In this document: in pieces, positions 25,054 through 46,700 of the stretch
Layout: each line of letters opens with the position of its first letter
Position numbering within the stretch: the stretch's first letter is position 1
From: Longimicrobiales bacterium
GTDB taxonomy: Bacteria; Gemmatimonadota; Gemmatimonadetes; Longimicrobiales; Gaopeijiaceae
Direction: 5' to 3'
Length of the DNA stretch: 64,000 nucleotides
Assembly (NCBI GenBank): GCA_965206105.1
Contig: OZ242201.1
Span: 588,852 to 652,851, forward strand
Translations under genes and position numbers: made by a program
Notes under the pieces: generated by a model
Databases searched by the model: none
The model's input: the letters and a program-made list of their open reading frames with translations, nothing else
What the model was told of the DNA's origin: nothing

Positions 25054-25315
25054 CGGCACCGGCGCCGACGATGTGCGGCGCAGACTCCTAGCGCCTCGGC
25101 ACTCTCGCCAGCACGCGAACTTCCGGTAGGGACCCTGGACTTGCGTTAGCGGAGGTAGAACATCTACATAGATTGGACATATACTGTTTCTTTATCTATG
25201 CTTCCGACGACCTGCTCATGTACGGTAATCGACAGCCTTCTGACGCAGGAAGGATACGATAAGGCGCTTAGGGGGTATCTGGCGTGGAACTCGGGCGATG
25301 GAGGTTTGGACCAAC

Positions 25316-28300: not shown

Positions 28301-31042
28301 CGCGTCACATTCAACGAGCCGGTGTCGGTGAGGGGCAGCCCGACCCTTTGGATAACGATCGCGGGCGGGCCGGCGCCACTCGCCCTTGCGTCCGGTTCCG
28401 GGTCTGCAACGCTGGTGTTCGAACACGAGGTGACGGTTGACACGGCGAGCTACACCCGGATCGGGATCACGGAGAACAGCCTGGGATCGACCGGCGGGAC
28501 GATCGTGTCGCGAGCGACCGGAATGGTGGCGGATCTGTCCCACGAGGGCACGGAGCCTACGGCGGAACCGGACCCCGATGAGACGGTGCCCCTGACGGCG
28601 GAGTTCCAGGACATGCCGGAGTCGCACGACGGGAGCCGGATCCGGTTCGGGCTGACGTTCAGCGAGGAGTTGAGTCTCAGCCACCTGACACTGCGCGACG
28701 AGGCATTCGAGGTGACGGGCGGCACGGTGTTCGGCGCACAGCGCAAGGAGACGGGCAGCAACCGCCGCTGGACGATCTCGGTCGATCCGGCCCTGGCGAG
28801 CGAGACGGTGACGATCACGCTGCCGGAGACGACGGACTGCGGGGCGAGCGGCGCGATCTGCACGGGAGACAGCCGGCCGCTCTCGGCGACGGTCACGGCG
28901 ACGGTCGCGGGCGAGACGCACGTCCCGGCGCCCGAGCTGACGCTGGCCGGCGCGAGCGCGACCGAGGGCGGGAACGCGACGGTGGACTTTGCGGTGACAC
29001 TGAGCCGCGCTGCGACGGACACGGTGACGGTGCAGTATGCGACCTCGGACGGCACCGCGTCGGCCGGAACGGACTACACGGCCATGTCGGGCACGCTCAC
29101 GTTCGCTGCGGGCGACACGGCGAAGACGGTGTCGGTGCCTGTGCTTGACGATGCCGACGACGAGAACGACGAGACATTCACGCTGACCTTGAGCAACGCC
29201 TCCGGTGCGTCGCTCGGCAACACCACGGCCACCGGCACGATCGTCGACAACGACACCACCACCGCAACGCCGCTGACGGCGACCTTCGAGAACATGCCGG
29301 AGACGCACGACGGCAGCCGGATCCGGTTCGGTCTGACCTTCAGCGAGGATCTGAGCGTTAGCCACCTGACGCTGCGCGACGAGGCGTTCGAGGTGAACAG
29401 CGGCACCGTCTTCGGCGCGCAGCGCAAGCAGCCGGGCAGCAACCGCCGCTGGACGATCTCGGTCGATCCGGACTCGGCGGGCAGCGCCGTGACCATCATT
29501 CTGCCGGAGACGACGGACTGCGAGGCGAGCGGCGCGATCTGCACGAACGACAAACGGCCGCTGTCGCACTCGCTGACGGACACGGTGGCGGTGGAAGTGG
29601 AGGAGCCGACCGTCCCCTCGCTTGCCGTGGCCGGCGCCAGCGCCACCGAGGGCGACGCGGTCACCTTCACGGTGTCGCTGTCGGAGGCGAGCGGCCAGCG
29701 GGTGACGGTCGACTACGCGACCTCGGGCGGTACGGCGGCGAGCGGAACCGACTTCACGGCTGCATCGGGGACGCTGACCTTTGACGCGGGCGACAGATCG
29801 AAGACGGTGAACGTGACGACGACAGACGACTCGGATAACGAGGAGGACGAGACCTTGACACTGACTTTGAGCAACGCGTCCGGTGCAACGCTCGGCAACG
29901 CGACGGCGACCGGCACGATCGTCGACAATGACACCGCTGCAACGCCCCTGACGGCAACCTTCGAGGACATGCCGGAGACGCACGACGGGAGCCGGATCCG
30001 GTTCGGGCTGACCTTCAGCGAGGAGCTGGACGTCAGCTACCGGACGTTGCGCGACCACGCGTTCAGCGTCACGGGCGGCACGGTGTTCGGCGCGCAGCGC
30101 AAGCAGACGGGCAGCAACCGCCGCTGGACGATATCGGTCGACCCGACCTCGGCGAGCGACACGGTGACGATCACGCTGCCGGAAACGACGATCTGCGCTG
30201 CGACGGGCGCGATCTGCACGGCGGACAACCGGCCGCTGTCGCACTCGCTGACGGACACGGTCATCGACGCGGCCTCGTCGTCCTCGAGTGACATCGCCGG
30301 CGGAACCGAGCAGGGCGAAGTGGAGGCCGCGCTGGCCGCCGCGGGCGGCATCACCCCGGAGGAGGCCGCCGCCGCGCTGTTCGGCGAGGGGCGGCTGAGC
30401 GAGTCGCAGCTGGACGCCCTCGACCGCCTCGGCAACCGGAACGGCCGCTACGACATCGGCGATCTGGTCGCCTGGAGGGAGCGCTGCCGCCAGGGCACCG
30501 CGGACTGCGGGGGAAGCCCCGCGAGCCCGGGGCCGGCGGGTGCGGCGGCGCTGCTTGCGGTCGTGCCCGGCGGCCGCAGAGGGTCGCGGGGTGGTCCGGG
30601 AGGGCGGCGGGGTGCCGGGCGACGGCGGCGGACGGCCGCGCCCCGCCAGGCCCTGGCGATGCTCTTCGCCGTGGCCCTGGCCTGGTCCTGCACCGACGGC
30701 GGCCTGGTCGAACCGGCCGCCCCCGAACGGGCCCCGGACCCGGGCTACCTCACCGTGTCGCTGGTCACGCCGGCCGACAGCCGCGACAGCGGCGTACTGC
30801 TGGAACTCGAGGGCCCGGGCATCGCGGAGGTGCGGGCTCCCGGGTTCGAGCTGTTCGAATCCAGAGCCTCGGGGCGCCATCAGGTCATGGTAGCGGGCGC
30901 GCTGCGGGCGGGCCCCGTCCTTCAGATCCGCGTGCCGGACCGCAACCGGGTCTCGCTCTACCGGGTCCGCGTGATGCAGGTCGCGGGAGAGGACTACGCA
31001 CTCAGGGATGAAGCGGAGTACCGGACGGTGATCACGCGGTGA
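25316..31042 (+). CDS. giant modular surface protein 1 (Calx-beta x4, cadherin-like, FN3, two-Cys repeat x4, shared C-terminal cassette)
   Basis: Signal peptide MRTRSTAAGSTAAMLLAALVALLPGAPAGAQ. Calx-beta signature DY..(T/V)SGTLTF..GE..KTV.V...DD..E..E.F.L.L. Cadherin-like VAENTPAGT...NQDEPP. FN3 (LTVSWLAP...YKVRVRATN). Confidence 0.85.
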   Translation: MRTRSTAAGSTAAMLLAALVALLPGAPAGAQTRVSSDWPLIPPEVGAGDTFRLLFVTSTEVQLNSDSIHHYNAFVQARAAAGHAAIQSHSSLFRVLASTAAVAARDNTGTNPGTDGPGEPIFWLGSGVRVADDYEDLYDGYWDSESWTTEAGGSGSDQALGILNGSTADGRSKPKWPFRNITTQGERVGGGKLNSGGMPMYSVDRGAGADGTLSTRVYALSSVFQVAPDTLGPGGIYVADAMAVEGYTAAFVVTMDGALPDAATVDYETSDGTATAGSDYTAVSGTLTFAAGETSKTVTVTIPDDDVHEDSEEFRLTLSNPSANARVLDAIATGRIDGAELTAEFVGVPTSHDGAAFEFLLSFSEEPDSAFSYLNLKGDGRRAGALAVANGRLERTYRFGSDHRNLVWRIRIAPDSDVADVAITLLATTDCSAANAICTDNGRPLSVPVTATVPGLAPWLAVVDASGVEGANTAVDFTVTLNRAVAETVTVDYATSDGTATAGADYTATSGTLTFAPGETRKTVSVPLLDDEVEESAETFTLTLSNASGGRAYLSDATATGTIADDDSTTPPVGVPQGDVLVSNLDRPLDWRPKIGMADTVGTSLNQRGAQVFTTGDSRDGYELTAVVLNFAFYEEIDGDNLEASLHLFGVASDPLGEKILDFENPTTYARFRGDRGPVTLVPADGTSEESRILRPNTDYVIQFALHTSGIERWFKIEATNSGAESGTDAWRIADDSHWKQTGWIEWSTRDYVMKMKVLGTRVERPLVFDAGLPVALSVAENTPAGTRIGRPFTASRTDPNAALTYSLDGPGKNDFAIDPATAQLRTKAVPDFENASEHALSIIVRDGQDSARHGLTITVLNQDEPPGSPAAPTLESRDGESLTVSWLAPANSGKPDILHYDLGYRLVGWPAGDPFRDGPQDVADTVARIPALVEGATYKVRVRATNSEGDGEWSAALLGTVPGTPPVAPSVTAVELAADESGDRAWTYGESIEARVTFNEPVSVRGSPTLWITIAGGPAPLALASGSGSATLVFEHEVTVDTASYTRIGITENSLGSTGGTIVSRATGMVADLSHEGTEPTAEPDPDETVPLTAEFQDMPESHDGSRIRFGLTFSEELSLSHLTLRDEAFEVTGGTVFGAQRKETGSNRRWTISVDPALASETVTITLPETTDCGASGAICTGDSRPLSATVTATVAGETHVPAPELTLAGASATEGGNATVDFAVTLSRAATDTVTVQYATSDGTASAGTDYTAMSGTLTFAAGDTAKTVSVPVLDDADDENDETFTLTLSNASGASLGNTTATGTIVDNDTTTATPLTATFENMPETHDGSRIRFGLTFSEDLSVSHLTLRDEAFEVNSGTVFGAQRKQPGSNRRWTISVDPDSAGSAVTIILPETTDCEASGAICTNDKRPLSHSLTDTVAVEVEEPTVPSLAVAGASATEGDAVTFTVSLSEASGQRVTVDYATSGGTAASGTDFTAASGTLTFDAGDRSKTVNVTTTDDSDNEEDETLTLTLSNASGATLGNATATGTIVDNDTAATPLTATFEDMPETHDGSRIRFGLTFSEELDVSYRTLRDHAFSVTGGTVFGAQRKQTGSNRRWTISVDPTSASDTVTITLPETTICAATGAICTADNRPLSHSLTDTVIDAASSSSSDIAGGTEQGEVEAALAAAGGITPEEAAAALFGEGRLSESQLDALDRLGNRNGRYDIGDLVAWRERCRQGTADCGGSPASPGPAGAAALLAVVPGGRRGSRGGPGGRRGAGRRRRTAAPRQALAMLFAVALAWSCTDGGLVEPAAPERAPDPGYLTVSLVTPADSRDSGVLLELEGPGIAEVRAPGFELFESRASGRHQVMVAGALRAGPVLQIRVPDRNRVSLYRVRVMQVAGEDYALRDEAEYRTVITR
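30194..31042 (+). repeat. near-identical 849-bp 3' cassette (copy 1)
   Basis: Aligns to 37636..38484 at a constant offset of 7442. I count 10 mismatches and no indels by hand. Confidence 0.9.
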
Positions 31043-31059
31043 CACGGCTCGGCGCGATG

Positions 31060-31099
31060 CCCCCCGGCGTGCACGCTACGCCTCTTGTGCGCCGGGGGG
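31060..31099 (+). terminator. GC-rich hairpin after giant gene 1
   Basis: CCCCCCGGCG, a 20-nt loop, then CGCCGGGGGG. No clear U-tract follows. Confidence 0.35.
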
Positions 31100-31416
31100 G
31101 CGTCATTCCTGCCTTCCAGCCCGGCGCCTGACCGCACTCGGGCGTTCACTCGGACAATAACGTACACAATATTGTACAGTATTTCATGACAAGTTGACAA
31201 TACAATTCCCCACGGTGTTTGCCATATTCGTCGCACATGTTAGAATCTACGCCGTTTTCGTGCAGTTGTTGACGCCGAGTTCCACGTTGCGACCTCGGTT
31301 GGCAGGTTCAGTTCCTCGGTGGGGAAACTGAGCGGAAGTCTCGCTGCGTTCCTCCGACGTTTTGGGAAGCTGGCCGCCGCCAGGTCGCCAAACCCGAATC
31401 GGAGATCGCAAAGCGG

Positions 31417-34400
31417 ATGACACGGAGAGTTCGAGGGATCGAGCTGGTTGGGGATGAGCGAGCGGTTGGAGGTTCCCTCGCACGGCGGCACGGCAGGCGC
31501 CTTGCCGCCGCGTTTCTGTTCGCGTGCGCCTTCGGCGCCCTCGCCACCGGCGCTGCCGCGCAGAACGAGCCCGGTGCACCGAGGAACCTCACGAAGGAAC
31601 TGGCCGACACGAACGACGTGATCGTGAGGTGGGATCCGCCGGATCGCGGCGGTCCCGTCGAGTACTACCAGTACCTGATCGGGGATCCGGAGGGATTCGG
31701 TTCATTCTGGAGACGGATCGCCGGCAGTGATTCGACCACGACATCCTACACCTTCGAGGACGTCCCCGGCGGAGAGAGCCAGTTGAACATCCGGGCGCGG
31801 AACAGCGACGGAGCGGGGCAACGGGCAAGCGTGATCGTGAGAATCAATCGGCCGGCCACCGGGCAGCCGCGAATATCCGGCCGGCGCCATGTGCCCAACC
31901 GTCTGAGAGCCAATCTACACCTTGTCGAGGACGAAGACGGCCTGAGGAAGGAACTCCTGGATGGCTCCTCGCACAACCCGTACCGCTACCAGTGGCTGCG
32001 CGGAGACGCCGAACCGGAAGCGTGCGACTTCACCCGGTTCGGGCGGAAGGAATACGAGATGGGCCTGGCCAAGGAGTACAGGCTGAAGCCGGCGGACGCC
32101 GGCGATAGCCTCAGGGTCGCCGTCTGCTTCCGGGATCTCATGTCCGAGACCAACGTGGAGATGGTGATCAGCGACTATACCGAGGTCATCGAGGCCGATA
32201 CCCGGCCACCGGGGGTCAAGAGAGCGTTCACCAGCGAGGGAGGCGGCGGCGTCACGCTCTTCTTCGACGAGATCCTGAACCCCGGGGCCGACCCGCTGGA
32301 CGACATCGACGAGAACGATCCGCCCGCCGAGTGCGACAGTTCGTGGCTGCCGCCGCGGAGCGCGTTCCGGGTGAGCGTGGAAGGGGGAAAGCGCACCTAT
32401 CGTCCGCGCGAGGTCACCGTCCAGTATTGCAGCAAGAGTACGGGCAGGAGGGACAGAATCGGTCCCCTGGACGGCAGGGTCCACCTGGATCTGGGGACGA
32501 CCCAGCTGTTCAATCGGGGGATCAAGCAGGGACAGTCGGTCAGGGTCATCTACACCGATCCCACGTCGGACGACGACAAGGCCGCCCTGCAGGACCGGAC
32601 CGGCAACGATGTCGTAAGCTTCGACGTGGAGGTCGAGAACCGCTCCACGCAAGCCCCGAGCGACGAGGACGTTTCGGCGGAGCCCAAGCCCAAGTCGGTG
32701 TGGGTACCCCCCGACGGGCGCACCATCCGCATCACCTTCGACGAACCCCTCAACCCGGAGCGCGAATCGCCGGCGGACGCGTTCACCGTGACGCAGGGGA
32801 ACGCTTCCCTGTCCGTCAACAATGCCTTGCTGGATGGTCCGCGCGCGCGGGTCACCCTCCAGGTGTATCCGCGCGTCCGGCAGGGCGGGAGCGTCACCGT
32901 GGGCTACCGGAACCCCGGGGGGAACGACGCCCTGCAGGACGTGGACGGCTTGCTCGCGAAGACCTTCAGCCGCCGGGCGGCGAACAGCTCGGCCCTGAAG
33001 CCCGGGCTGCGGCCCGTATCCGCCGAGGTCCAGGCCGATGGCCTGGAGGTGGAAATGCGTTTCAACACCAGGCTGCTTGAGAACGACGTGTCGCCCGGCG
33101 CCTTCACGATGCAGGTCGGTGGCACGGCGTACACGTTTGGAGACATAGAATTCTTCGACAACGGCAACTACATGCTCCTCTCGCAGTTTGGGGGGGTTGT
33201 CCCGGCGGACGAGACGGTCACGGTGGGCTATACCGAGCCGGCGCACGGCGCTCTGCTCCTGGCCCAGGACTCGAGGACGGCCGGTTCGTTTTCCCGCTTC
33301 GGGGCTACGAACTCATCGGAGTGGCGTGACGTGCCGGTCGCCGTCGACGCGGTCGCGGAGGAGCTGGACGCGTTCGACATTCTGTTCGTGGGGGAACTGG
33401 ATACCACAGTGGGATCTCCGCCGAACAGCGCCTTCAACGTGACGATCGACGGCACGGCGACCACCTTCGATTCGGTTCGAGTGGTCGCATCGGACAGGGT
33501 CCGGATTTCGGGTCTTGCGAGGCAGATGAAAACGGGCCAGCGCGTTGTGGTCTCATACACCCAACCGGCCACCGGGATCGTATTGCAGAGCGCGACAACA
33601 GGAAACGCGCTCGCCGGCTTCGAGCTGAGAGTGACGCTGGTCTTCCCGCCGAAGCCGGTGGGTGCGCAGGTGTCGGAGTCAGTCCGCCACAGGCTCTGGA
33701 TAGAGTTCGACCGCCCGATCTCACCGGACAACTTTCCGCCGACGTCGGCGTTCACAGTGAAGGTCAACGGCGTGGCGCGCACGGTGCACTCGGTCTCCCG
33801 CGGCTCGGCATCCGAACCGGAGTTGGTGTACCTGACATTCCCCACACTCGTGCGCGGCGACCCGGTCACCGTGAGTTACGAAAAGCCCGCGGGCTCCAGG
33901 CGGCTCCGGGGAACCAACTCCAGGGAAGTCGGCAGCTTCAGCGACTACCGGGTGGACAACCCAAATCCAGGCGTGCCGCGGTTGCTGAGACTGACCTGGT
34001 CGCTTGAAGACGACGAGGATAGGTTCAGCAAGGTCTTGGTCAACCTCACTTTCGACGCCGATCTGTCGTCGTCGTTGCCGTCAGAGTCGGCGTTTACGGG
34101 ATCGACGTTCACTGTAGCTCAAGGTGGGGGCGTGAATCGAGTGCGCTTTGACGTAGACGAAGTGTGGCTTGATTCCAACAATCCCAGAAGGCTCCGGCTG
34201 AAGACCTCCATTTTCGAAGCCTCCATAAGAGAAGAAATCGTCATTGGATACACCAAACCCACGTCGGGGAACACGCTCCAGGGCGCACGCGGCCACGAAG
34301 TGCCCAGCTTTTCCTTTACCGGAGATGCCGTCCGGGCAAATGGGCAAAACGCCCCCCCCTCCCCGGTCACGGCGGAGTTCACCCAACTGCCGCTACTTCA

Positions 34401-37400
34401 CGCCGGCGAGGTATTCACCGTCCGCCTCGTCTTCAGCGAGGAGTTCGCCGTGACGGCCGACCAGATCCGGGCTGGGCTGACGGTGACCGGCGGTTCGCTG
34501 ACGGCGCTGGCCCGGGTCACCGACGGCGAGGACCGCCAATGGGATCTGACGGTCACGCCGGACGCGGCGGCGGATCCGGTGGGCCTGACGCTCACGCCGA
34601 AGGAGAGCTGCGAGACGGAGAATGCGATCTGCACGGAGCAGGGCGGCCACCTCGAGGCAGAGGCCGTCGCGGAGGTAGCCGGACGCGAGCCCACGCACGT
34701 GGTGAGCGCGCGGCTGACCTCGCACCCGGGGGCCAACGGGACCTGGGACACCGGCGAGACCGTTACGGCGGCGGTCGAGTTCAGCCGCCAGGTCAGCTAT
34801 CAGGGCCCCCCGGGCGTGACGCCGACGCTGGGGATCACGCTCGACGGGACGCGCCGGGAGGCGGCGCTCACGAGCACGGGCTGGACCGACACGCTCACCT
34901 TCAGCCACGCCGTCACCGCAGCCGACAGCGGCGCCACGACCGTCGTGTTGGTTGCGAACGGCCTGGCGCTGAACGGCACGCTTCTCTTCGATAGCGACGC
35001 CTACCGGCTCGAACCGGAAGTCCCCGCCGACACGCTCTTGACGACGCCGCTGACGGCAAGCTTCGAGGACATGCCCGAGTCGCACGACGGGAGCCGGATC
35101 CGGTTCGGCCTGACGTTGAGCGAGGAACCCAGTGTCGGCCATACGGCCCTCCGCGACGAGGCGTTCGAGGTCACTGGCGGCACCGTCTTCGGCGCGCAGC
35201 GCAAGGAGTCTGGGAGCAACCGCCGCTGGACGATCTCGGTCGACCCGGACTCGGCGGCCGCAACGGTGACGATCACGCTGCCGGAGACCACGGACTGCGA
35301 AGCGGCGGGCGCGGTCTGCACGGCAGACGGCCGGCCGCTATTGGGCTCGCTGTCGGCGACGGTCGAGGGCGAGGAGCGCGGCCCGGAGCTGAGCGTGGGC
35401 GACGCGAGCGCGACGGAGGGCGACACGGTCGCCTTTGCGGTTTCGTTGTCGGTGGCGAGGGACGAGCAGGTGACGGTGGACTACGCGACCTCGGACGGGG
35501 CGGCGGAGAGCGGCACGGATTTCACGGCCGCGTCGGGCACTCTGACCTTCGCCCCGGGCGAGCTGTCGAAGACGGTGGGCGTCGCGACGGCCGACGACTC
35601 GGACGACGAGGAGGACGAGACCTTCACGCTGACGCTGAGCAACGCCTCCGGCGCGGGCCTGCGCGGCGCAACGGCGACCGGCACGATCGTCGACAACGAT
35701 TCAACGGTGCTCACCGTGAGCTTCGAGGATCTGCCGGAGTCACACAACGGGATGGCGCTTAATGTGCGCCTCGCGTTCAGCGAGGAGGTGGAGGTTGGCC
35801 ACGAGACGATTCGCAGCGCGTTGGAGGTGACGGGCGGCTCGGTGACCGGCGTGAGCCGCAGTCAAGGCGCCAGCAACCGACGCTGGAGGGTCACGGTCGA
35901 GCCCGCTTCGAAGACGGACACGGTGACGGTCACGCTGCCGGAGACGACGAACTGCGACGCAAGCGGCGCGATCTGCACCGGGGACGACCGGCCGCTGTCG
36001 CACTCGCTGTCCGCGACGATTGCCCCGCCGACGCTGCTGACCGCGACCTTCGAGGACATGCCGGCCACCCACGACGGGACCCGGATCAGGTTCGGCCTGT
36101 CGTTCAGCGAGGAGCTGGAGGTCAGCCACCTGACGCTGCGCGACGAGGCGTTCGAGGTGACGGGCGGCACGCTGTTCGGCGCTCAGCGCAAGGAGAGAGG
36201 CAGCGACCGGCGCTGGACGGTATCGGTCGATCCGGTCTCGGCGGACAGCACCGTGACGATCACGCTGCTGGAGACGACGGACTGCGACGCGGACGGCGCG
36301 ATCTGCACGTACGACAACCGGCCGCTGTCGCACTCGCTGTCGGACACGGTGGCGGTCGAAGGGGAGGAGCCGACCGTCCCGTCGCTTGCGGTGGCTGACG
36401 CGAGCGCCGCCGAGGGCGACACGATCACATTCACGGTGTCGCTGTCGGCCGCGAGCACCGACCAGGTGACGGTCGACTACGCGACCGCGAGCGGTACGGC
36501 GGAGAGCGGAACCGACTTCACGGCGGTGTCGGGCACACTGACCTTCGAAGCGGGCGACAGTTCGAAGACCGTGAGCGTGGCGACAACGGACGACTCGGAC
36601 GAGGAGGAGGACGAGTCATTCACGCTGACCTTGAGCAACGCCTCCGGTGCAGGCCTCGGCGACGTCACGGCGACGGGCACGATCGTCGACAACGACGCCA
36701 GCGTAACGCCGCTGACGGCGACCTTCGAGGACGTGCCGGAGTCGCACGACGGCAGCCGGATCAGTTTCAGCCTGACGTTCAGCGAGGAGCCCAGCGTGGG
36801 CTACCGGACGCTGCGCGACGAGGCCTTCGAGGTGACGGGCGGCACGGTCTTTGGTGCCCAGCGCAAGGAGACGGGCAGCAACCGCCGCTGGACGATCTCG
36901 GTGGATCCGGACTCGGCGACCGCAACGGTGACGATCACCCTGCCGGAGACGACGGACTGCGAGGCGGAGGAAGCGATCTGCACGGACGACGAGCGGCCGC
37001 TGTCGCACTCGCTGACGGACACGGTGGCGGTGGAAGTGGAAGAGCCGACCGTTCCGTCGCTTGCCGTGGGCGACGCCAGCGCCACCGAGGGCGACGCGGT
37101 CACATTCACGGTGTCGCTGTCGGAGGCGAGCGGCCAGCGGGTGACGGTCGACTACGCGACCTCGGGCGGTACGGCGGCGAGCGGAACCGACTTCACGGCC
37201 GCGTCGGGGACGCTGACGTTCGACGCGGGCCAAACGTCGAAGACGGTGAGCGTCGCGACGATCGACGACGCGGTCGACGAGGAGGACGAGACGTTCACGC
37301 TCACCCTGGGCAACCCCTCCGGCGCGAGCCTCGGCGACGCCGCGGCGACCGGCACGATCGTCGACAACGACACCGAAGCGCCCGAGCCGCTGACGGCGAC

Positions 37401-38484
37401 CTTCGAGGACATGCCCGGCACCCACAACGGAAGCGCGTTCACCTTCGGGCTGACCTTCAGCGAGGAGTTCTCGGTCAGCTACCGGACGTTGCGCGACTCG
37501 GCGTTCGCCGTGACGGGCGGCTCGGTGACCCGGGCGAAGCGCAAACAACCGGCCAGCAACCTGCGTTGGACGATCACGGTCGAGCCGGCTTCGACAAGCG
37601 ACACGGTGACGATCACGCTGCGGGAGACCACGGATTGCGCTGCGACGGGCGCGATCTGCACGGCGGACAACCGGCCGCTGTCGCACTCGCTGACGGACAC
37701 GGTCATCGACGCGGCCTCGTCGTCCTCGAGTGACATCGCCGGCGGAACCGAGCAGGGCGAAGCGGAGGCCGCGCTGGCCGCCGCGGGCGGCATCACCCCG
37801 GAGGAGGCCGCCGCCGCGCTGTTCGGCGAGGGGCGGCTGAGCGAGTCGCAGCTGGACGCCCTCGACCGCCTCGGCAACCGGAACGGCCGCTACGACATCG
37901 GCGATCTGGTCGCCTGGAGGGAGCGCTGCCGCCAGGGCACCGCGGACTGCGGGGGAAGCCCCGCGAGCCCGGGGCCGGCGGGTGCGGCGGCGCTGCTTGC
38001 GGCCGTGCCCGGCGGCCGCAGAGGGTCGCGGGGTGGTCCGGGAGGGCGGAGGGGTGCCGGGCGACGGCGGCGGACGGCCGCGCCCCGCCAGGCCCTGGCG
38101 ATGCTCTTCGCCGTGGCCCTGGCCTGGTCCTGCACCGACGGCGGCCTGGTCGAACCGGCCGTCCCCGAACAGGCCCCGGACCCGGGCTTCCTCACCGTGT
38201 CGCTGGTCACGCCGGCCGACAGCCGCGACAGCGGCGTGCTGCTGGAACTCGATGGCCCGGGCATCGCGGAGGTGCGGGCTCCCGGGTTCGAGCTGTTCGA
38301 ATCCAGAGCCTCGGGGCGCCATCAGGTCATGGTAGCGGGCGCGCTGCGGGCGGGCCGCGTCCTTCAGATCCGCGTGCCGGACCGCAACCGGGTCTCGCTC
38401 TACCGGGTCCGCGTGATGCAGGTCGCGGGAGAGGACTACGCACTCAGGGACGAAGCGGAGTACCGGACGGTGATCACGCGGTGA
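31417..38484 (+). CDS. giant modular surface protein 2 (FN3, many Ig-like repeats, two-Cys repeat x6, Calx-beta x3, shared C-terminal cassette)
   Basis: Signal-like RRLAAAFLFACAFGALATGAAAQ. FN3 (PRNLTKE...IRARNSDG). A series of about 100-aa repeats ends in V(G/S)Y..P; the Ig-like/Big_5-like assignment is tentative. Calx-beta signatures. Confidence 0.85.
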   Translation: MTRRVRGIELVGDERAVGGSLARRHGRRLAAAFLFACAFGALATGAAAQNEPGAPRNLTKELADTNDVIVRWDPPDRGGPVEYYQYLIGDPEGFGSFWRRIAGSDSTTTSYTFEDVPGGESQLNIRARNSDGAGQRASVIVRINRPATGQPRISGRRHVPNRLRANLHLVEDEDGLRKELLDGSSHNPYRYQWLRGDAEPEACDFTRFGRKEYEMGLAKEYRLKPADAGDSLRVAVCFRDLMSETNVEMVISDYTEVIEADTRPPGVKRAFTSEGGGGVTLFFDEILNPGADPLDDIDENDPPAECDSSWLPPRSAFRVSVEGGKRTYRPREVTVQYCSKSTGRRDRIGPLDGRVHLDLGTTQLFNRGIKQGQSVRVIYTDPTSDDDKAALQDRTGNDVVSFDVEVENRSTQAPSDEDVSAEPKPKSVWVPPDGRTIRITFDEPLNPERESPADAFTVTQGNASLSVNNALLDGPRARVTLQVYPRVRQGGSVTVGYRNPGGNDALQDVDGLLAKTFSRRAANSSALKPGLRPVSAEVQADGLEVEMRFNTRLLENDVSPGAFTMQVGGTAYTFGDIEFFDNGNYMLLSQFGGVVPADETVTVGYTEPAHGALLLAQDSRTAGSFSRFGATNSSEWRDVPVAVDAVAEELDAFDILFVGELDTTVGSPPNSAFNVTIDGTATTFDSVRVVASDRVRISGLARQMKTGQRVVVSYTQPATGIVLQSATTGNALAGFELRVTLVFPPKPVGAQVSESVRHRLWIEFDRPISPDNFPPTSAFTVKVNGVARTVHSVSRGSASEPELVYLTFPTLVRGDPVTVSYEKPAGSRRLRGTNSREVGSFSDYRVDNPNPGVPRLLRLTWSLEDDEDRFSKVLVNLTFDADLSSSLPSESAFTGSTFTVAQGGGVNRVRFDVDEVWLDSNNPRRLRLKTSIFEASIREEIVIGYTKPTSGNTLQGARGHEVPSFSFTGDAVRANGQNAPPSPVTAEFTQLPLLHAGEVFTVRLVFSEEFAVTADQIRAGLTVTGGSLTALARVTDGEDRQWDLTVTPDAAADPVGLTLTPKESCETENAICTEQGGHLEAEAVAEVAGREPTHVVSARLTSHPGANGTWDTGETVTAAVEFSRQVSYQGPPGVTPTLGITLDGTRREAALTSTGWTDTLTFSHAVTAADSGATTVVLVANGLALNGTLLFDSDAYRLEPEVPADTLLTTPLTASFEDMPESHDGSRIRFGLTLSEEPSVGHTALRDEAFEVTGGTVFGAQRKESGSNRRWTISVDPDSAAATVTITLPETTDCEAAGAVCTADGRPLLGSLSATVEGEERGPELSVGDASATEGDTVAFAVSLSVARDEQVTVDYATSDGAAESGTDFTAASGTLTFAPGELSKTVGVATADDSDDEEDETFTLTLSNASGAGLRGATATGTIVDNDSTVLTVSFEDLPESHNGMALNVRLAFSEEVEVGHETIRSALEVTGGSVTGVSRSQGASNRRWRVTVEPASKTDTVTVTLPETTNCDASGAICTGDDRPLSHSLSATIAPPTLLTATFEDMPATHDGTRIRFGLSFSEELEVSHLTLRDEAFEVTGGTLFGAQRKERGSDRRWTVSVDPVSADSTVTITLLETTDCDADGAICTYDNRPLSHSLSDTVAVEGEEPTVPSLAVADASAAEGDTITFTVSLSAASTDQVTVDYATASGTAESGTDFTAVSGTLTFEAGDSSKTVSVATTDDSDEEEDESFTLTLSNASGAGLGDVTATGTIVDNDASVTPLTATFEDVPESHDGSRISFSLTFSEEPSVGYRTLRDEAFEVTGGTVFGAQRKETGSNRRWTISVDPDSATATVTITLPETTDCEAEEAICTDDERPLSHSLTDTVAVEVEEPTVPSLAVGDASATEGDAVTFTVSLSEASGQRVTVDYATSGGTAASGTDFTAASGTLTFDAGQTSKTVSVATIDDAVDEEDETFTLTLGNPSGASLGDAAATGTIVDNDTEAPEPLTATFEDMPGTHNGSAFTFGLTFSEEFSVSYRTLRDSAFAVTGGSVTRAKRKQPASNLRWTITVEPASTSDTVTITLRETTDCAATGAICTADNRPLSHSLTDTVIDAASSSSSDIAGGTEQGEAEAALAAAGGITPEEAAAALFGEGRLSESQLDALDRLGNRNGRYDIGDLVAWRERCRQGTADCGGSPASPGPAGAAALLAAVPGGRRGSRGGPGGRRGAGRRRRTAAPRQALAMLFAVALAWSCTDGGLVEPAVPEQAPDPGFLTVSLVTPADSRDSGVLLELDGPGIAEVRAPGFELFESRASGRHQVMVAGALRAGRVLQIRVPDRNRVSLYRVRVMQVAGEDYALRDEAEYRTVITR
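37636..38484 (+). repeat. near-identical 849-bp 3' cassette (copy 2)
   Basis: See 30194..31042. Confidence 0.9.
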
Positions 38485-41400
38485 TGGGTCCGGGGCGTGG
38501 ACGCGGCGCGGACGATGGTATCGGCACGGCAAGTGGGTGCAGCGGCCCCGGTGTGCCAGGCTCCCCGACCCGCGCATGGGTCGCGGCCGCATGGCTGGTC
38601 CTGTCATTCGCATGCCTCGTTCCCCAAGCTGCCGCCGCCCAGCCCCCCCCTCCGCCTCCCCGCAAGATGTGGGTCCTGGCGTGGACCGAGGACTTCAACG
38701 GCACCACGGTCGACTGGTCGAAATGGAACCACAGGAGCGAGGCGCTAAGGAGAGTTCGCACCCACGGCGGACGCAGGATCCATTGGCGGTACGAGCACGA
38801 CAACGTCGGTCTCGCGAACGGCCACCTGGTCTTGCGCAACACCCGGCAGCAGCAGGGCGGCAGTTTCGACATGGTCAGGGCCGCCGCGATCGACACCAAG
38901 GGCAAGTTCGAGCAGACCTACGGGTACTTCGAAGCCAGAATCAGGATCGCCCCCACCGCCGACGGCATCCACACGGCCTTCTGGCTTCAGAACGACGATC
39001 GGGACAAGAGGCCCAGTGAAGGTGGGGTCGGTGGCCCCTCCGACGGAGCCGAAATCGACATCCTCGAGTCGGTGTATACCAGCAACCACTATGGAATGGC
39101 CGTCCATTGGGACCAATACAGGTCGGTCAGCGAGAAACTGGACTTCGCTCCGATACACGACGGACAGTTCCACGTCTATTCGCTCGCGTGGACACCGGAC
39201 GGCTACACGTTCTATGCGGATGGAGAGCGGAAGACGGAGATGTCGGATGGCCTGTCCCACAGTGACGGATACGTCATTCTCTCCACCGGGGTGAGCTGGG
39301 GTCAGGGCAATGCCCACACCGGGACGTTCCCCAACGAGGCCCTGGTGGACTGGATCCGGGTGTACGAGTTGGCGGACGACCCCTCGTTCAACTATGCGCC
39401 GGTAGGCAAACCCACCATATCGAGTCTGGGCGGCACGCTGATCGCATCCGCCACCGACATCCGCGACGAGGACGGACTGACCGACCCGGCCTTCGAGTGG
39501 CAGTGGTACGTCGGCGATGGCGGCGACGGCGTTGGTGAGGCGATCTCCGGAGCCACCGAACCCGAATACGCGGTCAGGCAATCCGACTTCGGCAGGTCGC
39601 TCATTGTGCAGGTGGCCTTCACCGACGACCGCGGCACCGAAGAGAGCGTCTACAGCGATCCGTTTCCCGTCACTCATCCGCCGGTGATCACCAGCACCGG
39701 TCCGTTCACGGTGAACGAGGGGCAAACGTCGGTGGCGGCCCTGACGGCGACGGACGAGGACACGCCGGTCGAGGACCTGGTGTGGTCCATCGAGGGCGGC
39801 GCCGACGGAGATCACTTCACCTTGACCGGGAGCAACGTGCTGGCCTTCCGGGTGGCCAAGGACTTCGAGGCGCTGGACGACACCGGTCGCGACGGAAGCT
39901 ACGAAGTCGTGGTGCGGGTGGGCGACGGCGCGAACACGGCGAGCGATACCCTGGCCGTCACGCTCCTGGATGTGTACGAGGAGCAACCCCGGCGTCCCCC
40001 TCCCCCTCCCGGCAAGCGCTGGGTACTGGCGTGGAGCGAGGGCTTCAACGGCACCACGCTCGATTGGTCGAAATGGAACCACAGGAACGAAACCTATCGG
40101 CCTGAGCGCACGCATGGCGGACACAGGATCCATTGGCGGTACGACCACGGCAACGTCAGTCTCGCGAACGGCCATCTGGTCTTGCGCAACAATCTGCAGC
40201 AGTCGGGCGACGGTGCCGTCGTGGTCAAGGCTGCCGCGATCGACACCAAGGACAAGTTCGAGCAGACCTACGGCTATTTCGAGGCGAGCATCAGGATCGC
40301 TCCCACCGCGGACGGCATCCACACGGCCTTCTGGCTCCAGAACGACAACCGGCACATGAAGGCCAGCAACGGCGGTGTCGATGGGCCCTCCGACGGAGCC
40401 GAAATCGACATCTTCGAGTCGGTTTACACCCAGAACCTCTATGCCGTGGCCGCGCATTGGGACGATGGCGCCAGCGTCTCGGCAGACGCGGACTTCGCTT
40501 CGATACACGACGGACAGTTCCACGTCTATTCGCTCGCGTGGACACCGGACGGCTACACCTTCTACGCGGATGGAGAGCGCACGACGGAGATGTCCGGTGG
40601 CCTGTCCCACAGTGACGGATACGTGATTCTCTCCACCGGCGTGAGCTGGGCTGGCGGCAATGCCAATACCGGCACGTTCCCCAACGAGGCCCTGGTGGAC
40701 TGGATCCGGGTGTACGAGCTGGCGGACGACCTCTCGGTCAACGCTGAGCCCGAAGGCAAACCTACCATCTCGGCTGGGCCGAACGGGAGCGGCACGCTGA
40801 TCGCATCCGCCACCGACATCCGCGACGAGGACGGACTGACCGACCCGGCCTTCGAGTGGCAGTGGTACGTCGGCGATGGCGGCGACGGCGTTGGTGAGGC
40901 GGTCGCCGGGGCCACCGAACCCGAATACGCGGTCAGGCAATCGGACTTCGGCAGGTCGCTCACTGTGCAGGTGGCCTTCACCGACGACCGCGGCACCGAA
41001 GAGAGCGTCTACAGCGATCCGTTTCCGGTCACTCACCCGCCGGTGATCACCAGCACCGGTCCGCTCACGGTGAACGAGGGGGAAACGTCGGTGGCGGCCC
41101 TGACGGCGACGGACGAGGACACGCCGGTCGGGGACCTGGTGTGGTCCGTCGAGGGCGGCGCCGACGGAGATCACTTCACCTTGACCGGGGGCAACGTGCT
41201 GGCCTTCCGGGTGGCCAAGGACTTCGAGGCGCTGGACGACACCGGTCGCGACGGAAGCTACGAAGTCGTGGTGCGGGTGGGCGACGGCGCGAACACGGCG
41301 AGCGATACCCTGACCGTCACGCTCCTGGATGTGGATGACGAGACAGCGCCGGAGCTTCAGGGCGCCGAGGCGAGCACGGACTCGGTGGTGCTGACCTACA

Positions 41401-43450
41401 GCGAGGCGCTCGACGAGTCCTCGACGCCCGCGGCGGCGGCGTTCGCGGTGACGGTGGCGGGCGAGGTGTGGAGCCTTGCGGCGACAGGCCCCGTGGCGGT
41501 GAGCGGATCGACCGTGACGCTGGCGCTCGACTCGGCGGCGGCGCCCGGCGACACGGTTGAGGTGAGCTACACCCCGCCGCTCGCCGACGCCCTGCAGGAC
41601 ACCGCGGGCAACCGCGCGGCTTCGGCGACGATCGCGGCCAGCGTCCCCGCGGACACGGTGGTGACGCCCGTGGTGACGGTGCCGCTGACGGCGGAGTTCC
41701 AGGGGCTTCCGGAGCGTCACGACGGCGGGCCGTTCACCTTCCAGCTGGTGTTCAGCGAGGAGTTCAGCGTCAGCTACCAGACGCTGCGCGACGAGGCGTT
41801 CGAGGTGACGGGCGGCACGGTCTTCGGCGCCCAGCGCAAGGAGACGGGCAGCAACCGCCGCTGGACGATCTCGGTCGATCCGGACTCGGCGGACATAGCG
41901 GTGACGATCACGCTCCCCGAAACGGCGGACTGCAATGCGGCCGGCGCGATCTGCGCGGAGGAGAACCGGCGGCTGTCGCACTCGCTGACGGCGACGGTCG
42001 AGGGCGAGGCGGCGGCCGTCCCGTCGCTTGCCGTGGCCGACGCCAGCGCCACGGAGGGCGCCGCGGTCGCATTCACGGTGTCGTTGTCGGAGGCGAGCAG
42101 CGGACAGGTGACGGTCGACTACGCGACCTCGGGTGGGACCGCCGTGAGCGGAACCGACTTCACGGCGGCGTCGGGGACGCTGACCTTCGCCGCGGGTGAC
42201 AGCTCAAGACGGTGAGCGTCGCAACGGCCGACGACACGGTGGACGAGAACGACGAGACATTCACGCTGACCTTGAGCAACGCCTCCGGTGCGAGCCTCGG
42301 CGACAACGCCACGGCGACCGGCACGATCGTCGACAACGACACCACCGCAACGCCGCTGACGGCGACCTTCGAGAACATGCCGGAGACGCACCACGACATT
42401 GCGTTCGAATTCGCGCTGAAGTTCAGCGAGGAATTCCCGATCAGCTACAAGACGTTGCGCGACGGTGCGTTCAACGTCACGGGCGGCGAGGTGACAGGTG
42501 CGCGGCGCCGGCTGAAGAGCAGCAACCTCATCTGGTTCATCCAAGTCGATCCGGCCTCGGCGAACGACACGGTGACGATCACGCTGCGGGAGACGACGGA
42601 CTGCGATGCGGCCGGCGCGATCTGCACGGCGGACAACCGGCCGCTGTCGCACTCGCTGACGGACACGGTCATCGACGCGGCCTCGTCGGCCTCGAGTGAC
42701 ATCGCCGGCGGCACCGCACGGGACGAAGTGGAGGCCGCGCTGGCCCTAGCGGGCGGCATCACCCCGGAGGAGGCCGCCGCCGCGCTGTTCGGCGAGGGGC
42801 GGCTGAGCGAGTCGCAGCTGGACGCCCTCGACCGTCTCGGCAACCGGAACGGCCGCTACGACCTCGGCGACATGCTGGCCTGGATCGAACGCTGCAGGCA
42901 GGGCAACGCGGACTGCGGGGGAAGCCCCGCGAGCCCGGGCCCGGCGGCTGCGGCCGCGCTGCTCGCGTTCGTGCCCGGCGGCCGCAGAGGGTCGCGGGGT
43001 GGTCCGGGAGGGCGGCGCGGGGCCGGGCGTGGGCGCCGGGCCGCCGCGCCCCGCCACGCTCTGGCTATCCTCTTCGCCGCGGCCCTGGCGCTGTCCTGCA
43101 CCGACGGCGGCCTGGTCGAACCGGCCGCCCCTGAACAGGCCCCGGACCCGGGCCTCCTCAATGTGTCACTGGTCACGCCGGCCGCCAGTCGCGACAGCGG
43201 CGTGCTGCTGGAACTCGAGGGCCCGGGCATCGCGGAAGTGCGGGCTCCCGGGTTCGAGCTCTTCGAATCCCGAGCCTCGGGGCGGCATCAGGTCATGGTA
43301 GCGGGCTCGCTGCGGGAGGGCCGCGTCCTCCGGATCCGCGTGCCGGACCGCAACCGGCTCTCGCTCTACAGGGTCCGCGTGATCCAGGTCGCCGCCGAGG
43401 ACTACCAACTCAGGGACGAAGCGGAGTACCGGGCGGTGATCACGCGGTGA
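38484..43450 (+). pseudogene. giant modular surface protein 3 (two GH16-like + Ig-like + cadherin-like blocks, two-Cys repeat x2, Calx-beta, C-terminal cassette), broken by a 1-nt frameshift near 42208
   Basis: ORFs 38481..42215 and 42212..43450 join into one protein when compared with gene 4 (48417..48427 CTCAAGGACGG versus 42203..42212 CTCAAGACGG). GH16-type catalytic motifs EIDILE and EIDIFE. Signal peptide AWVAAAWLVLSFACLVPQAAAAQ. Confidence 0.7.
38643..41351 (+). repeat. internal tandem duplication of a ~1.35-kb GH16-like/Ig-like/cadherin-like block
   Basis: TGGGTCCTGGCGTGG at 38670 and TGGGTACTGGCGTGG at 40020, an offset of 1350. The unit ends are offset by 1359 (a 9-nt indel). Confidence 0.85.
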
Positions 43451-43588: not shown

Positions 43589-43724
43589 AAACCAGTCCAG
43601 CCCTTGACATCGGCAAACGCTGTTAGCTCGTCGTCTTGTGTCGTAGTATCTTGATTGGTCGAGAATGTATAGAAATGTATCGACCCGAAAACTGAGGCCA
43701 GCCTACCGCCAGCAGGCAGGACCC

Positions 43725-46700
43725 ATGACGAACACCCGGACGGTTGCATCCCAACGCAGGTCGATCGACACGGTCGCTGCAACAGGTACCTCGAGCCACG
43801 AGCCGCCGACAGGCATCCCGCCGGGCGCATGGGTAAGGGCGGCGTTGGTGATCCTGTCACTCGCGTGCGTTGGGCCCCAGGTTGCCGATGCGCAACCTCC
43901 TCCTCCAACCGGCAAGCGCTGGGTCCTGGCATGGAGCGAGGACTTCAACGGCTCGTCGCTCGATTGGTCGAAATGGAATCACAGGAGCGAGGCGTCTCGA
44001 GGGGAGCGCGGCCACGGCGGACACCGGATCAAGTGGCGGTACGAGCACGACAACGTCGGTCTCGCGAACGGTCATCTGGTGCTGCGCAATACCCGGCAGT
44101 CGGGTGATGAATACGACCTGGTCAAGGCCGCCGCGATCGACACCAAGGGCAAGTTCGAGCAGACCTACGGGTACTTCGAGGCCAGCATCAGGATCGCCCC
44201 TACCGGAGACGGGATCCACACGGCCTTCTGGCTCCAGAACGACAACCGGCACAGGAAGGCCGGCAACGGCGGTGTCGACGGGCCCTCCGACGGAGCCGAA
44301 ATCGACATCCTCGAGTCGGTGTACACCACCGATCGCTATGCCATGGCCGTTCATTGGGACGGCGGCCGCAGTCAGGTCGAGGAAACCGACTTCCCTCCTT
44401 TGCACGGCGGACAGTTCCATGTCTACGGGCTCGCCTGGACACCGGACAGCTACACCTTCTACGCAGACGGACAACGGAAGGAGCAGATGTTCGATGTCGT
44501 GTCTCATAGTGACGGATACGTCATTCTGTCCACCGGCTTAAGTTGGTTCGCGGGCAATGCGCACACCGGCACGTTCCCCAACGAGGCCCTGGTGGACTGG
44601 GTCCGGGTATACGAGTTGGTGGATGCCCCCGCGATCACCGTGACGGGCAGCGCGAACGTGGGCCGCACGCTGACCGCATCCGCCACCGGCATCCAGGGCG
44701 AGGCCGGATCGGGCACTCCGACGTTCGGGTGGCAATGGCTCGTCAGTGATGGCGACGGCGATTCCTACGCGGAGATTGCCGGAGCCACCGCGACGGAGTA
44801 CACCGTCAGGCCATCCGACCAGGGCAAATCGCTCAAGGTACGCGCCACCTACACCGACGCCGACGATACCCGGCAGACCGTGTACAGCGAGCCACTTCTC
44901 GTGACTCAGCCACCGACAATCACCAGCACCGGCCCATTCACGGTGAACGAGGGCGAGACGGCGGTGGCCACTTTGACGGCGACAGACGGAGATACGAAGG
45001 CCGGGGAACTGGTCTGGTCCGTGCGGGGCGGTGTCGACGGAGACCACTTCACCTTCACCGGAGGCAGCTCGCTCGCCTTCAGGGCCGCCAAGGACTTCGA
45101 GGCGCCCGACGACGGGGATCGCGACGGAAGCTACGAGGTGGTGGTGCGGGTGGGCGACGGCGCGAATACGGCGACCGATACCCTGTCCATCACGCTCGCG
45201 GATGTCGACGACGAGGGTGGTCCCGAGCTCCAATCGGCGAGGGGTGACGGAAGCGCCCTGCTGCTGGTGTTCGACGAGGTACTGGACGCGTCGTCCACGC
45301 CGGCAACGGCGGCCTTCGCGGTAGCTGTGAATCGTGTATCGAAGGCCATTTCGCACGTCCAGCTGGAGAACAACCTGGTCAGGCTGACGCTGACTGGCCC
45401 GCCGCCGGCTTTGGGCGATTCCGTCACCGCAAGCTATACCGTACCGTCATCGAATCCGCTGCGGGACGTCTCGGGTACCCCGGCCGCCTCGGCGACGATC
45501 GAGACCCTCCTGAAGCCGCGGCTGACCGCGCGTTTCGACGCTATTCCAAATGCGCATGGTGGCGCACCCTTTTTGCTCTCGGTGATCTTCAGCGAGGCGA
45601 CCACCGTGGCCTGGAAGGCGATGCGCGACCGCGTCCTGACCGTGAAGAATGGGCGGGTGACCCGTGCGGTACGGCTCAACCACGGTGGTCCCGAGAACGC
45701 GGCCTGGCAGGTCACGATCGAGCCGGCTGGCGGCGACGTGACCGTCGAGCTGCCGACGACGACGGATTGCGGGGCTGGCGACGCGGTGTGCACGGAAGAT
45801 GAACGCCCCCTGATCGAGGCCGTGACGGCGACGATAGCCCAGGGGACCGTCCCTCCGCTGACGGCGGAGTTCTCGGAGGCACCTGGTGAGCATGACGGAT
45901 CGGAGGGCTTTACGGTCAGGCTCAACTTCACCGCGGCGGTCAACGTGACCGAGACGGCACTGCGCACCAGGACGCTGAGCGTGAGCGGCGGTCGGGTAGA
46001 GTCGGCGGAGCATGAAATCGGACGCCGCGACCGGTGGTTGCTGACAATCGCGCCGACATCGCTCGAGGACGTGACTGTGGCACTCTCATCACCGGCTTCC
46101 TGCGGCGAAGCGGACGCGGTGTGCGCGCCGGACGGGCGCAAGCTGTCTGCCGGCGCGGATGTCCGCGTCAAGGGACCGGCGAGCATTCCGCTTACGGCGT
46201 GGTGGCGGCCGTACTACCGGAAGCACGACGGCTCGAAGGTGTTCACGCTCAACGCCGAGTTCAGCTGGCCGGTGGCGACCTCGCGCGAGGCCGTGCGGGA
46301 TGCCGTCCAGGTTACCAACGGCGAGGCCACCGATGCGTTTCCCAGAGAGAATCAGCCAAAGGTCTGGGTGTTCCGGATCAAGCCGCTGTACAACGAGACG
46401 GTGCGCGTCACGTTGCTGCCGGCCAGCGACTGCGCCGCCGAGGGGGCGATCTGCACCGACGACGGGCGTCCGCTGTCGAGCACGGCGCTTTGGGATGTCC
46501 TGCCCAGGAACCCGAACGCGGTGGACGAGACCGCGCCGGAAGTGCAGGGTGCGGAGGTGGACGGCGCGCACCTCGTATTGCTGTACAACGAGGGGCTCGA
46601 CGAGGCCTCCACGCCCGAGGCGGGCGCCTTTGCCGTGACGGTGGAAGGCCAGGCGCGTGACCTGGCGGCGAACGATCCGGTTGCAGTGGACGGGCGGCGG

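Follow-up and report, generated by a model that had tools for sequence, protein, structure and literature searches.

Evidence for patchy concerted evolution of a 3' cassette pair that brackets a replaceable giant-gene slot in a marine Gemmatimonadota genome

Two neighbouring giant genes of a Longimicrobiales bacterium, genes 1 and 2 of a 64,000-nucleotide stretch of contig OZ242201.1 (hereafter "the window"; G000:C1:588852-652851), end in 849-bp cassettes, C1 and C2, that differ at only ten positions. Comparison with related strains makes it probable, in our judgment, that C1 and C2 are a long-standing paralogous pair kept ~99% identical by repeated, patchy recombination, and that these same repeats bracket a replaceable gene slot. 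The two genes belong to a tandem array of four, all on the plus strand (Table 1), whose products carry Calx-beta, cadherin, fn3 and SWM-repeat domains (with GH16 additionally in genes 3 and 4) and each of which closes with a cassette of ~280 aa.

The window lies in a single-contig metagenome-assembled genome (MAG) of 4.10 Mb and ~68–70% GC, G000, whose more distant protein matches carry the name Candidatus Palauibacter. Outside the window, the two ends of this contig (G000:C1:1-60898 and 4047892-4103546) overlap by ~56–60 kb at 97–100% identity, in what looks like an untrimmed circular overlap with mixed strain variants. The cassette comparison draws on assembled sequences: the sister genome G020 (CBDBUB01 contig_6), with flanks 97–99% identical to those of G000; S3 (ENA ERZ25069412 ctg830205; L072), a third assembly, which carries both cassette copies; and OZ242947.1 (G063), from another species, in which the housekeeping flank matches in pieces at 71–87% identity. 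In what follows, g1–g4 denote the four genes of the window, q1 the G020 cassette or orthologue, and s1 and s2 the first and second S3 copies.

Table 1. Features of the giant-gene cluster, in window coordinates.
Feature	Coordinates	Strand	Description
Gene 1 (g1)	25298-31042	+	1914 aa
Gene 1 body	25323-28770	+	mostly 90-100% (first window 89%) identical to a solitary OZ242947.1 gene
C1	30194-31042	+	3' end of gene 1, 849 bp
Central patch of C1	30608-30747 (C2: 38050-38189)	+	four position-following differences shared with S3
Intergenic D1	31043-31416		between gene 1 stop and gene 2
Gene 2 (g2)	31417-38484	+	2355 aa
Gene 2 body	31417-36400	+	31880-36400 mostly 99-100% identical to a solitary OZ242947.1 gene
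Gene 2 tail modules	36401-37635	+	Calx-beta and two-Cys repeats
C2	37636-38484	+	3' end of gene 2, 849 bp
Gene 3 (g3)	38481-42215 and 42212-43450	+	split by frameshift
D2 and gene 3 head H1	38485-39995	+	97-100% identical to G020 per 60-bp window
Gene 3 head H2	39988-41352	+	diverged tandem copy of H1
Gene 3 cassette	42602-43450	+	same type as C1/C2; 73/849 differences, ~91% identity
Gene 4 (g4)	43665-49688	+	2007 aa
Gene 4 cassette	48816-49688	+	different type; 68-70% nt and ~61% aa identity to C1/C2

Cassette Identity and Recombination

At a fixed offset of 7442, C1 and C2 align with exactly ten mismatches (C1 coordinates 30321, 30561, 30608, 30720, 30729, 30747, 30796, 30811, 30915 and 31009) and no indels, i.e., at 98.8% identity. 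The 5' edge of this tract is sharp, the final upstream mismatch lying at 30193, and its position in gene 2 (37636) falls where the last two-Cys module closes, a module end that is at least 91% identical across all genes. The 3' edge coincides with the TGA stop codons (31040–31042 and 38482–38484), beyond which identity falls to 16–47%. Upstream of the tract, as profiled by fixed-diagonal and alignment scans in sliding 100-bp windows, genes 1 and 2 are 75–91% identical per window, with a peak of 95–97% at 29612–29712. A search of the whole genome found no additional cassette copy above 80% identity outside the cluster.

A sequence-only reading of the window had counted by hand ten mismatches without indels, had called the upstream modules clearly more diverged and the sequences divergent directly past the stop codons, and had ranked the gene 3 cassette as less similar and that of gene 4 as much less. 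Our realignment reproduces its count exactly, and the identities given above and in Table 1 agree with the rest of its description; the sliding-window comparison of the four genes that it proposed shows an abrupt drop in gene 1–gene 2 divergence. A GENECONV-type analysis, which it had also proposed, was run as a permutation over the terminal 1.8 kb of genes 1–4 (506 polymorphic sites), and the observed gene 1–gene 2 fragment (268 polymorphic sites, 10 mismatches) was reached in 0 of 2000 permutations (P < 0.0005).

The trees of the two regions are likewise in conflict. Maximum likelihood applied to the 900 bp ahead of the cassette sets g2 apart from (g1,q1) by a path of ~0.2 substitutions per site; in the cassette tree g1, g2 and q1 branch as an unresolved trichotomy, the g1–g2 path being 0.014. 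By the approximately unbiased test, the upstream data reject the topology of the cassette tree (p = 0.0002), and the reverse test gives p = 0.056. Together with homogenized synonymous sites and within-genome variants (see below), the divergence drop and this tree conflict bear out the earlier proposal of concerted evolution of the 3' cassette.

Variants Shared With Strain S3

The strongest information on the age of the pair comes from S3, which carries gene 1 (99% identical), then a different gene of 3107 aa and, after it, D2, H1 and H2 as in G000, and in which both gene 1 and the 3107-aa gene end in this cassette type. Over the 849 bp, the two copies within a genome differ at 10 positions in G000 (g1–g2) and 13 in S3 (s1–s2); copies in the same position differ at 14 (g1–s1) and 9 (g2–s2); and the G020 cassette differs at 2 positions from s2 (q1–s2) and at 15 from s1 (q1–s1). 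Between G000 and S3, four cassette sites (30204, 30205, 30556 and 30874) group by genome, i.e., as ((g1,g2),(s1,s2)), and four others (30608, 30720, 30729 and 30747, all inside 140 bp) group by gene position; the third possible pattern occurs at no site in the cassette. Upstream of 29224, the same comparison finds 0 sites grouping by genome and 89 by position, so that the genome-versus-position counts differ between cassette and upstream region with a Fisher p = 2e-5 (our own arithmetic).

The ten differences between C1 and C2 comprise four old positional ones, five private to g2 and one private to g1. Because the four positional differences are shared with S3, the two-cassette arrangement would predate the split of the strains. 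The central patch that holds them appears not to have been homogenized since that split, having evolved by position, and the patches on either side appear to have exchanged variants between copies within each lineage, i.e., to have undergone patchy concerted evolution, with the latest exchanges between C1 and C2 probably about as old as the strain split. The "recent gene conversion" of the sequence-only reading holds to this extent: conversion is supported, but not as one recent event, with 4/10 differences old and common to S3.

The homogenized tract also differs in length between the strains: the identical tract in S3 is ~1.8 kb, starting at g1 coordinate ~29224, and that in G000 is 849 bp, shorter because the gene 2 tail is the divergent one. 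In the site patterns between G000 and S3, g2 stands alone at 130 sites. Conversion from g3 to g2 was considered as a source of the g2-private sites at 30796–31009 and rejected, since a tract that long would bring ~15 further differences.

The Gene Slot Between the Cassettes

The space between the cassettes is occupied differently in each of the close strains: by gene 2 in G000, by the 3107-aa gene in S3 (gene 2b; L072 10001-19324) and by no gene in G020. The first ~5 kb of the S3 slot gene are absent from G000; the middle of that gene matches gene 4 at 89% identity. In G020, the gene 1 body (98–100% identical to the s1 body in every 100-bp window) is followed by one s2-like cassette, 98.9% identical to the G000 type, and then by the flank that lies downstream of gene 2 in G000; a search of that genome found gene 2 nowhere in it. 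This arrangement is the product that would be expected from a deletion between repeats, and such a deletion between homogenized tails implies that the repeats are prone to recombine. The G020 cassette mosaic, as seen against G000, had at first been put down to one crossover alone; this reading was rejected once S3 showed the G020 cassette to be s2-like, with its 2 differences.

The bodies of the giant genes tell a history that differs from that of their cassettes. The OZ242947.1 orthologue of gene 2 is a solitary gene of 2662 aa at 1.58 Mb (L036 3560-8070), the match to which ends at 37704, and the relative of the gene 1 body is likewise solitary (1838 aa, at 3.06 Mb; L037 5820-9270); the cassettes on both are just 62% identical to C1/C2 at the amino acid level. 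Conversely, the OZ242947.1 gene that is the positional orthologue of gene 4 bears a cassette 91% identical to that of gene 3 and 69% identical to that of gene 4. As body and cassette identities disagree in this way, the two parts must have had different histories: bodies appear to follow orthology or horizontal transfer and cassettes to follow the locus, and the body identities suggest that giant adhesin gene bodies have moved recently between species by horizontal transfer. The gene 2 tail, 74–97% identical to the OZ242947.1 orthologue (85–97% over most of its length) and 77–97% identical to the gene 1 tail, is nearer to the orthologue than to gene 1. With a body at 99–100% identity set against a housekeeping flank at 71–87% and a cassette at 62%, the edge at 37636 is probably the joint of an imported gene 2 body and tail with a resident cassette, rather than the end of a conversion tract.

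The intergenic stretch D1, to the left of gene 2, is composite. It holds a GC-rich inverted repeat (31060–31099), within a segment (31051–31099) that matches the 3' flank of the gene 2 orthologue in OZ242947.1 at 88%; a spacer part (31111–31141) that matches many places in related genomes; an AT-rich near-palindromic element (31155–31208); a promoter-like TTGCCA-16-TAGAAT ahead of gene 2 (31219–31246); and most of a segment (31286–31430) 77% identical to the 5' flank of the same orthologue. A scan for intrinsic terminators past gene 1 returned none, the inverted repeat there having no T-run. The make-up of D1 fits a circular or tandem gene 2 intermediate, or a donor in which a cassette already lay upstream of gene 2.

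We propose that repeated, patchy, short-tract gene conversion between C1 and C2 would maintain their ~99% identity, through homologous recombination between the cassettes that is presumably RecA-dependent, with the 3' tract edge falling where homology stops, at the stop codon. As direct repeats 7.4 kb apart, the cassettes could also serve as homology arms, and crossing-over in or beside a cassette would delete or replace the gene between the copies. In G000 the slot is occupied by gene 2, whose body would have passed recently, by horizontal exchange, between this species and another. The sequences themselves show the near-identity of the cassettes, their homogenized synonymous sites, the mosaic phylogeny, the variants common to both copies of a genome, three allelic states of the slot and gene bodies that are near-identical across species; the enzymology, the ancestral slot state and the direction of the individual transfers are inferred.

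The main alternative is a single recent event, in which the cassette was duplicated once when a gene 2 unit integrated—e.g., by single-crossover (Campbell-type) integration of a circularized unit—and the ten differences either arose afterwards by point mutation or already set donor and recipient apart. The resemblance of D1 to a junction of gene 2 3' and 5' flanks (the 88% and 77% matches above) is what such an integration would leave, G020 is without the entire 7442-bp unit, and gene 2 was found in only 2/52 other genomes of the genus, with one of these matches weak and partial (33%). On the contrary, S3 has two cassettes around a different gene and shares the four positional C1/C2 differences, so the cassette pair would be older than the gene 2 slot state; moreover, the four sites shared within genomes and the different tract length in S3 would require exchanges beyond the single one. 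And since the native cassette of gene 2 in OZ242947.1 is only 62% identical in amino acids to C1/C2, cassette replacement is needed under any scenario. We therefore regard a one-time duplication as unlikely. Searching public assemblies for an exact match to the gene 2 protein returned no record, and a search for further cassette alleles in JGI (Joint Genome Institute) metagenome contigs returned only distant relatives, at ≤46% identity over most of the cassette.

Several observations nevertheless weigh against a pair maintained by repeated recombination around a replaceable slot. The left junction of the gene 2 import sits exactly at the C1 stop codon, a position that would call for a crossover within a very short stretch of homology or for subsequent conversion. 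The searched data hold three close strains, so that each class of informative sites has four members, and these site patterns fit non-reciprocal conversion, multiple crossovers and the sorting of ancestral polymorphism alike. Finally, neighbouring cassettes at three other loci are just 64–77% identical, so homogenization is not general to the family. In a second, independent neighbouring pair, in G009 (L050, G009:C1:1024500-1040500), the cassettes match at 95.8% over 1121 bp and identity falls sharply upstream, and taken across loci cassette homogenization appears to be recurrent, not universal.

Assembly Artifact and Selection

An assembly or polishing artifact—one consensus placed twice, or two copies homogenized by short-read polishing—was also considered. 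The contig is metagenome-assembled and its overlapping ends show that strain mixtures are present, and the 1-bp deletion in gene 3 (see below) is possibly a sequencing error. Against these points, the copies differ at 10 sites, 4 of which recur at identical positions in the independent two-copy assembly S3; the same cassette is found in G020, at the identity given above; the edges of the tract match biological landmarks (module end and stop codon); and polishing cross-talk may erase a few differences, not raise ~80% identity to 99%. We hold an artifact to be very improbable.

The idea that strong purifying selection keeps an essential C-terminal module alike in both copies, with no recombination, finds some encouragement in a cassette protein that is conserved family-wide and in a reading frame that appears to be under moderate purifying selection (dN/dS, the ratio of non-synonymous to synonymous substitution rates, is ~0.43 in older cassette comparisons), but it is refuted by the synonymous sites and has next to no chance of being right, since a gene 1–gene 2 cassette dS of 0.013 (dN 0.012), as opposed to 0.16 to gene 3 and 0.65 to gene 4, is a near-identity for which protein-level selection cannot account, 7/10 differences are non-synonymous (3 being synonymous), and orthologous OZ242947.1 gene bodies carry cassettes of a mere 62% identity.

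Cassette Architecture

The product of C1 comprises the final part of the last two-Cys module, a linker rich in Ser, a dockerin-like loop, a CX6C motif, an Arg-rich stretch that holds a lipobox-like hydrophobic segment, and a beta-sandwich of ~100 aa. The cassette has no Pfam or NCBIfam family match, yet it is conserved at the protein level, with many invariant columns, across the ~100 giant proteins returned by our protein search. Elsewhere in the genome, on the minus strand at G000:C1:~739,500-745,500 (near C1:740,900; outside the window), the cassette is split, its halves forming two genes side by side: the dockerin-like loop and Cys pair close a 1251-aa open frame, and the small open reading frame that comes next has a lipoprotein-like signal and the homologous C-terminal domain.

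AlphaFold2 models residues ~180–282 of the cassette (window 38170–38481) as a beta-sandwich with a predicted local distance difference test (pLDDT) score of ~90, the remainder of the model being poor. The top PDB match of this domain is the non-cellulosomal cohesin 2xdh, and it is weak (E = 7e-3, template modelling (TM) score 0.43). A single EF-hand-like loop is visible in the cassette; a recognizable dockerin has duplicated Ca-binding segments. We treat the predicted likeness to cohesin as a suggestive lead and no more.

It is conceivable, though we think it rather doubtful, that the cassette is a self-contained, lineage-matched anchoring unit—a dockerin-like loop with an embedded lipoprotein bearing a cohesin-like beta-sandwich—that doubles as a universal 3' homology arm. 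If it were so, the conserved end of the last two-Cys module would be the point at which incoming, horizontally transferred giant adhesin bodies are spliced in frame to the resident cassette, the tandem cluster would act as a homologous-recombination capture slot for new surface proteins, and conversion between cassettes would keep captured genes compatible with the anchoring partner of the host.

Mosaicism of Genes 3 and 4

Recombination at this locus seems to have reached further than the gene 1–gene 2 pair to which the earlier reading had drawn attention. Gene 3 matches gene 4 in three stretches (41346–41765 to 46872–47291 at 98.1%; 41751–42036 to 47964–48249 at 99.0%; and 42208–42702 to 48422–48916 at 94.7%) and changes from gene 4-like to the gene 1/gene 2 type ~100 bp inside the cassette. 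It thus reads as a chimera of a gene 4-like tail and a gene 1/gene 2-like cassette. Genes 1 and 4 also have a tract of 155 bp in common, at 98.7% identity.

At the other end of gene 3, the two head copies H2 and H1 are 70–93% identical over the first ~800 bp and 92–100% over the last ~500 bp; H2 is present in S3 and absent from G020, and the idea that the gene 3 head of G020 is of H2 type was dropped when a four-way alignment showed it to be of H1 type. Two further observations concern the gene 3 reading frame. At 42207–42208, gene 3 is without one G of an AAGG that is found in gene 4 and in both G020 orthologues, and this 1-bp deletion, be it a genuine new frameshift or an error of sequencing, splits the gene inside a Calx-beta domain; the G020 orthologue is intact (open frame of 1211 aa). 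In the TGATG at 38482–38486, the stop codon of gene 2 overlaps a possible start codon of gene 3, and the same junction is found past gene 1 in G020 and past the S3 slot gene; as the first ~30 bp past the gene 2 stop resemble the non-coding 3' flanks of cassettes of the same type, the true start of gene 3 may lie downstream.

Comparison With Known Systems

The closest parallel is found in Helicobacter pylori. As described in the review PMC3960876 (citing Pride & Blaser 2002), the 3' segments of the outer-membrane adhesin paralogues babA/babB, homA/homB and sabA/sabB/hopQ are in concerted evolution via RecA-dependent intragenomic gene conversion, and in babA/babB and homA/homB the 5' and middle regions are alike between strains while the 3' segments are alike within a strain. 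The cluster studied here shares with that system paralogous surface-adhesin genes whose 3' similarity runs within the genome and whose 5' and middle similarity runs between strains (here even species), chimeric genes, and paralogues that are present, absent or at different loci. It differs in that the paralogues are tandem neighbours encoding modular proteins of 1900–3100 aa with Calx-beta, cadherin and two-Cys modules, that the 3' segment is an uncatalogued, anchor-like cassette and not a beta-barrel, that the host is an uncultured marine member of the Gemmatimonadota, and that no sign of phase or antigenic variation was seen. In the Palauibacterales paper (PMC10469786) the relevant terms are unmentioned, and the titles of other Longimicrobiales and Palauibacter papers gave no hint of such a process.

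A second parallel, to the replaceable slot, is offered by the features that our locus has in common with genomic islands of the replacement type: a slot with conserved bounds holds different, non-homologous surface genes in close strains (gene 2, gene 2b, or empty), and the inserted gene has a cross-species identity well above the genomic background. In such flexible islands (O-antigen and capsule loci, marine "replacement" islands), conserved flanks are the homology arms for gene swaps. Here, the arms would instead be the 3' coding cassettes of the genes themselves, so that every swap would yield an in-frame chimera, a new body on a resident tail.

Polymorphic toxin systems (Rhs, CdiA) swap their C-termini as modules, with variable modules becoming attached to a constant part by recombination at a conserved motif. 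The cluster resembles them in having a short, highly conserved coding motif at the joint, here the end of the last two-Cys module with its high identity in all genes. Unlike them, its polarity is reversed (the body varies and the C-terminus is constant) and it has no toxin or immunity genes; it is not a member of that family.

If these comparisons are taken together, the locus, from an uncultured marine phylum, offers a clean natural example of the way in which giant modular surface proteins may be rebuilt: bodies would travel between species, the 3' anchoring cassette would stay local and be kept uniform through recombination, and direct repeats would drive the gain, loss and replacement of whole 7–9 kb genes among strains otherwise ~99% identical. 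The practical import is for annotation, in which chimeric genes are to be expected, for the quality control of MAGs, whose assemblies break at such repeats, and for function, in that an undescribed cassette would act as one inherited unit. The well-supported conclusion is that a known process—concerted evolution of adhesin 3' segments, as in H. pylori—operates in a new setting, to which this cluster adds that the homogenized cassettes bracket a replaceable gene slot.

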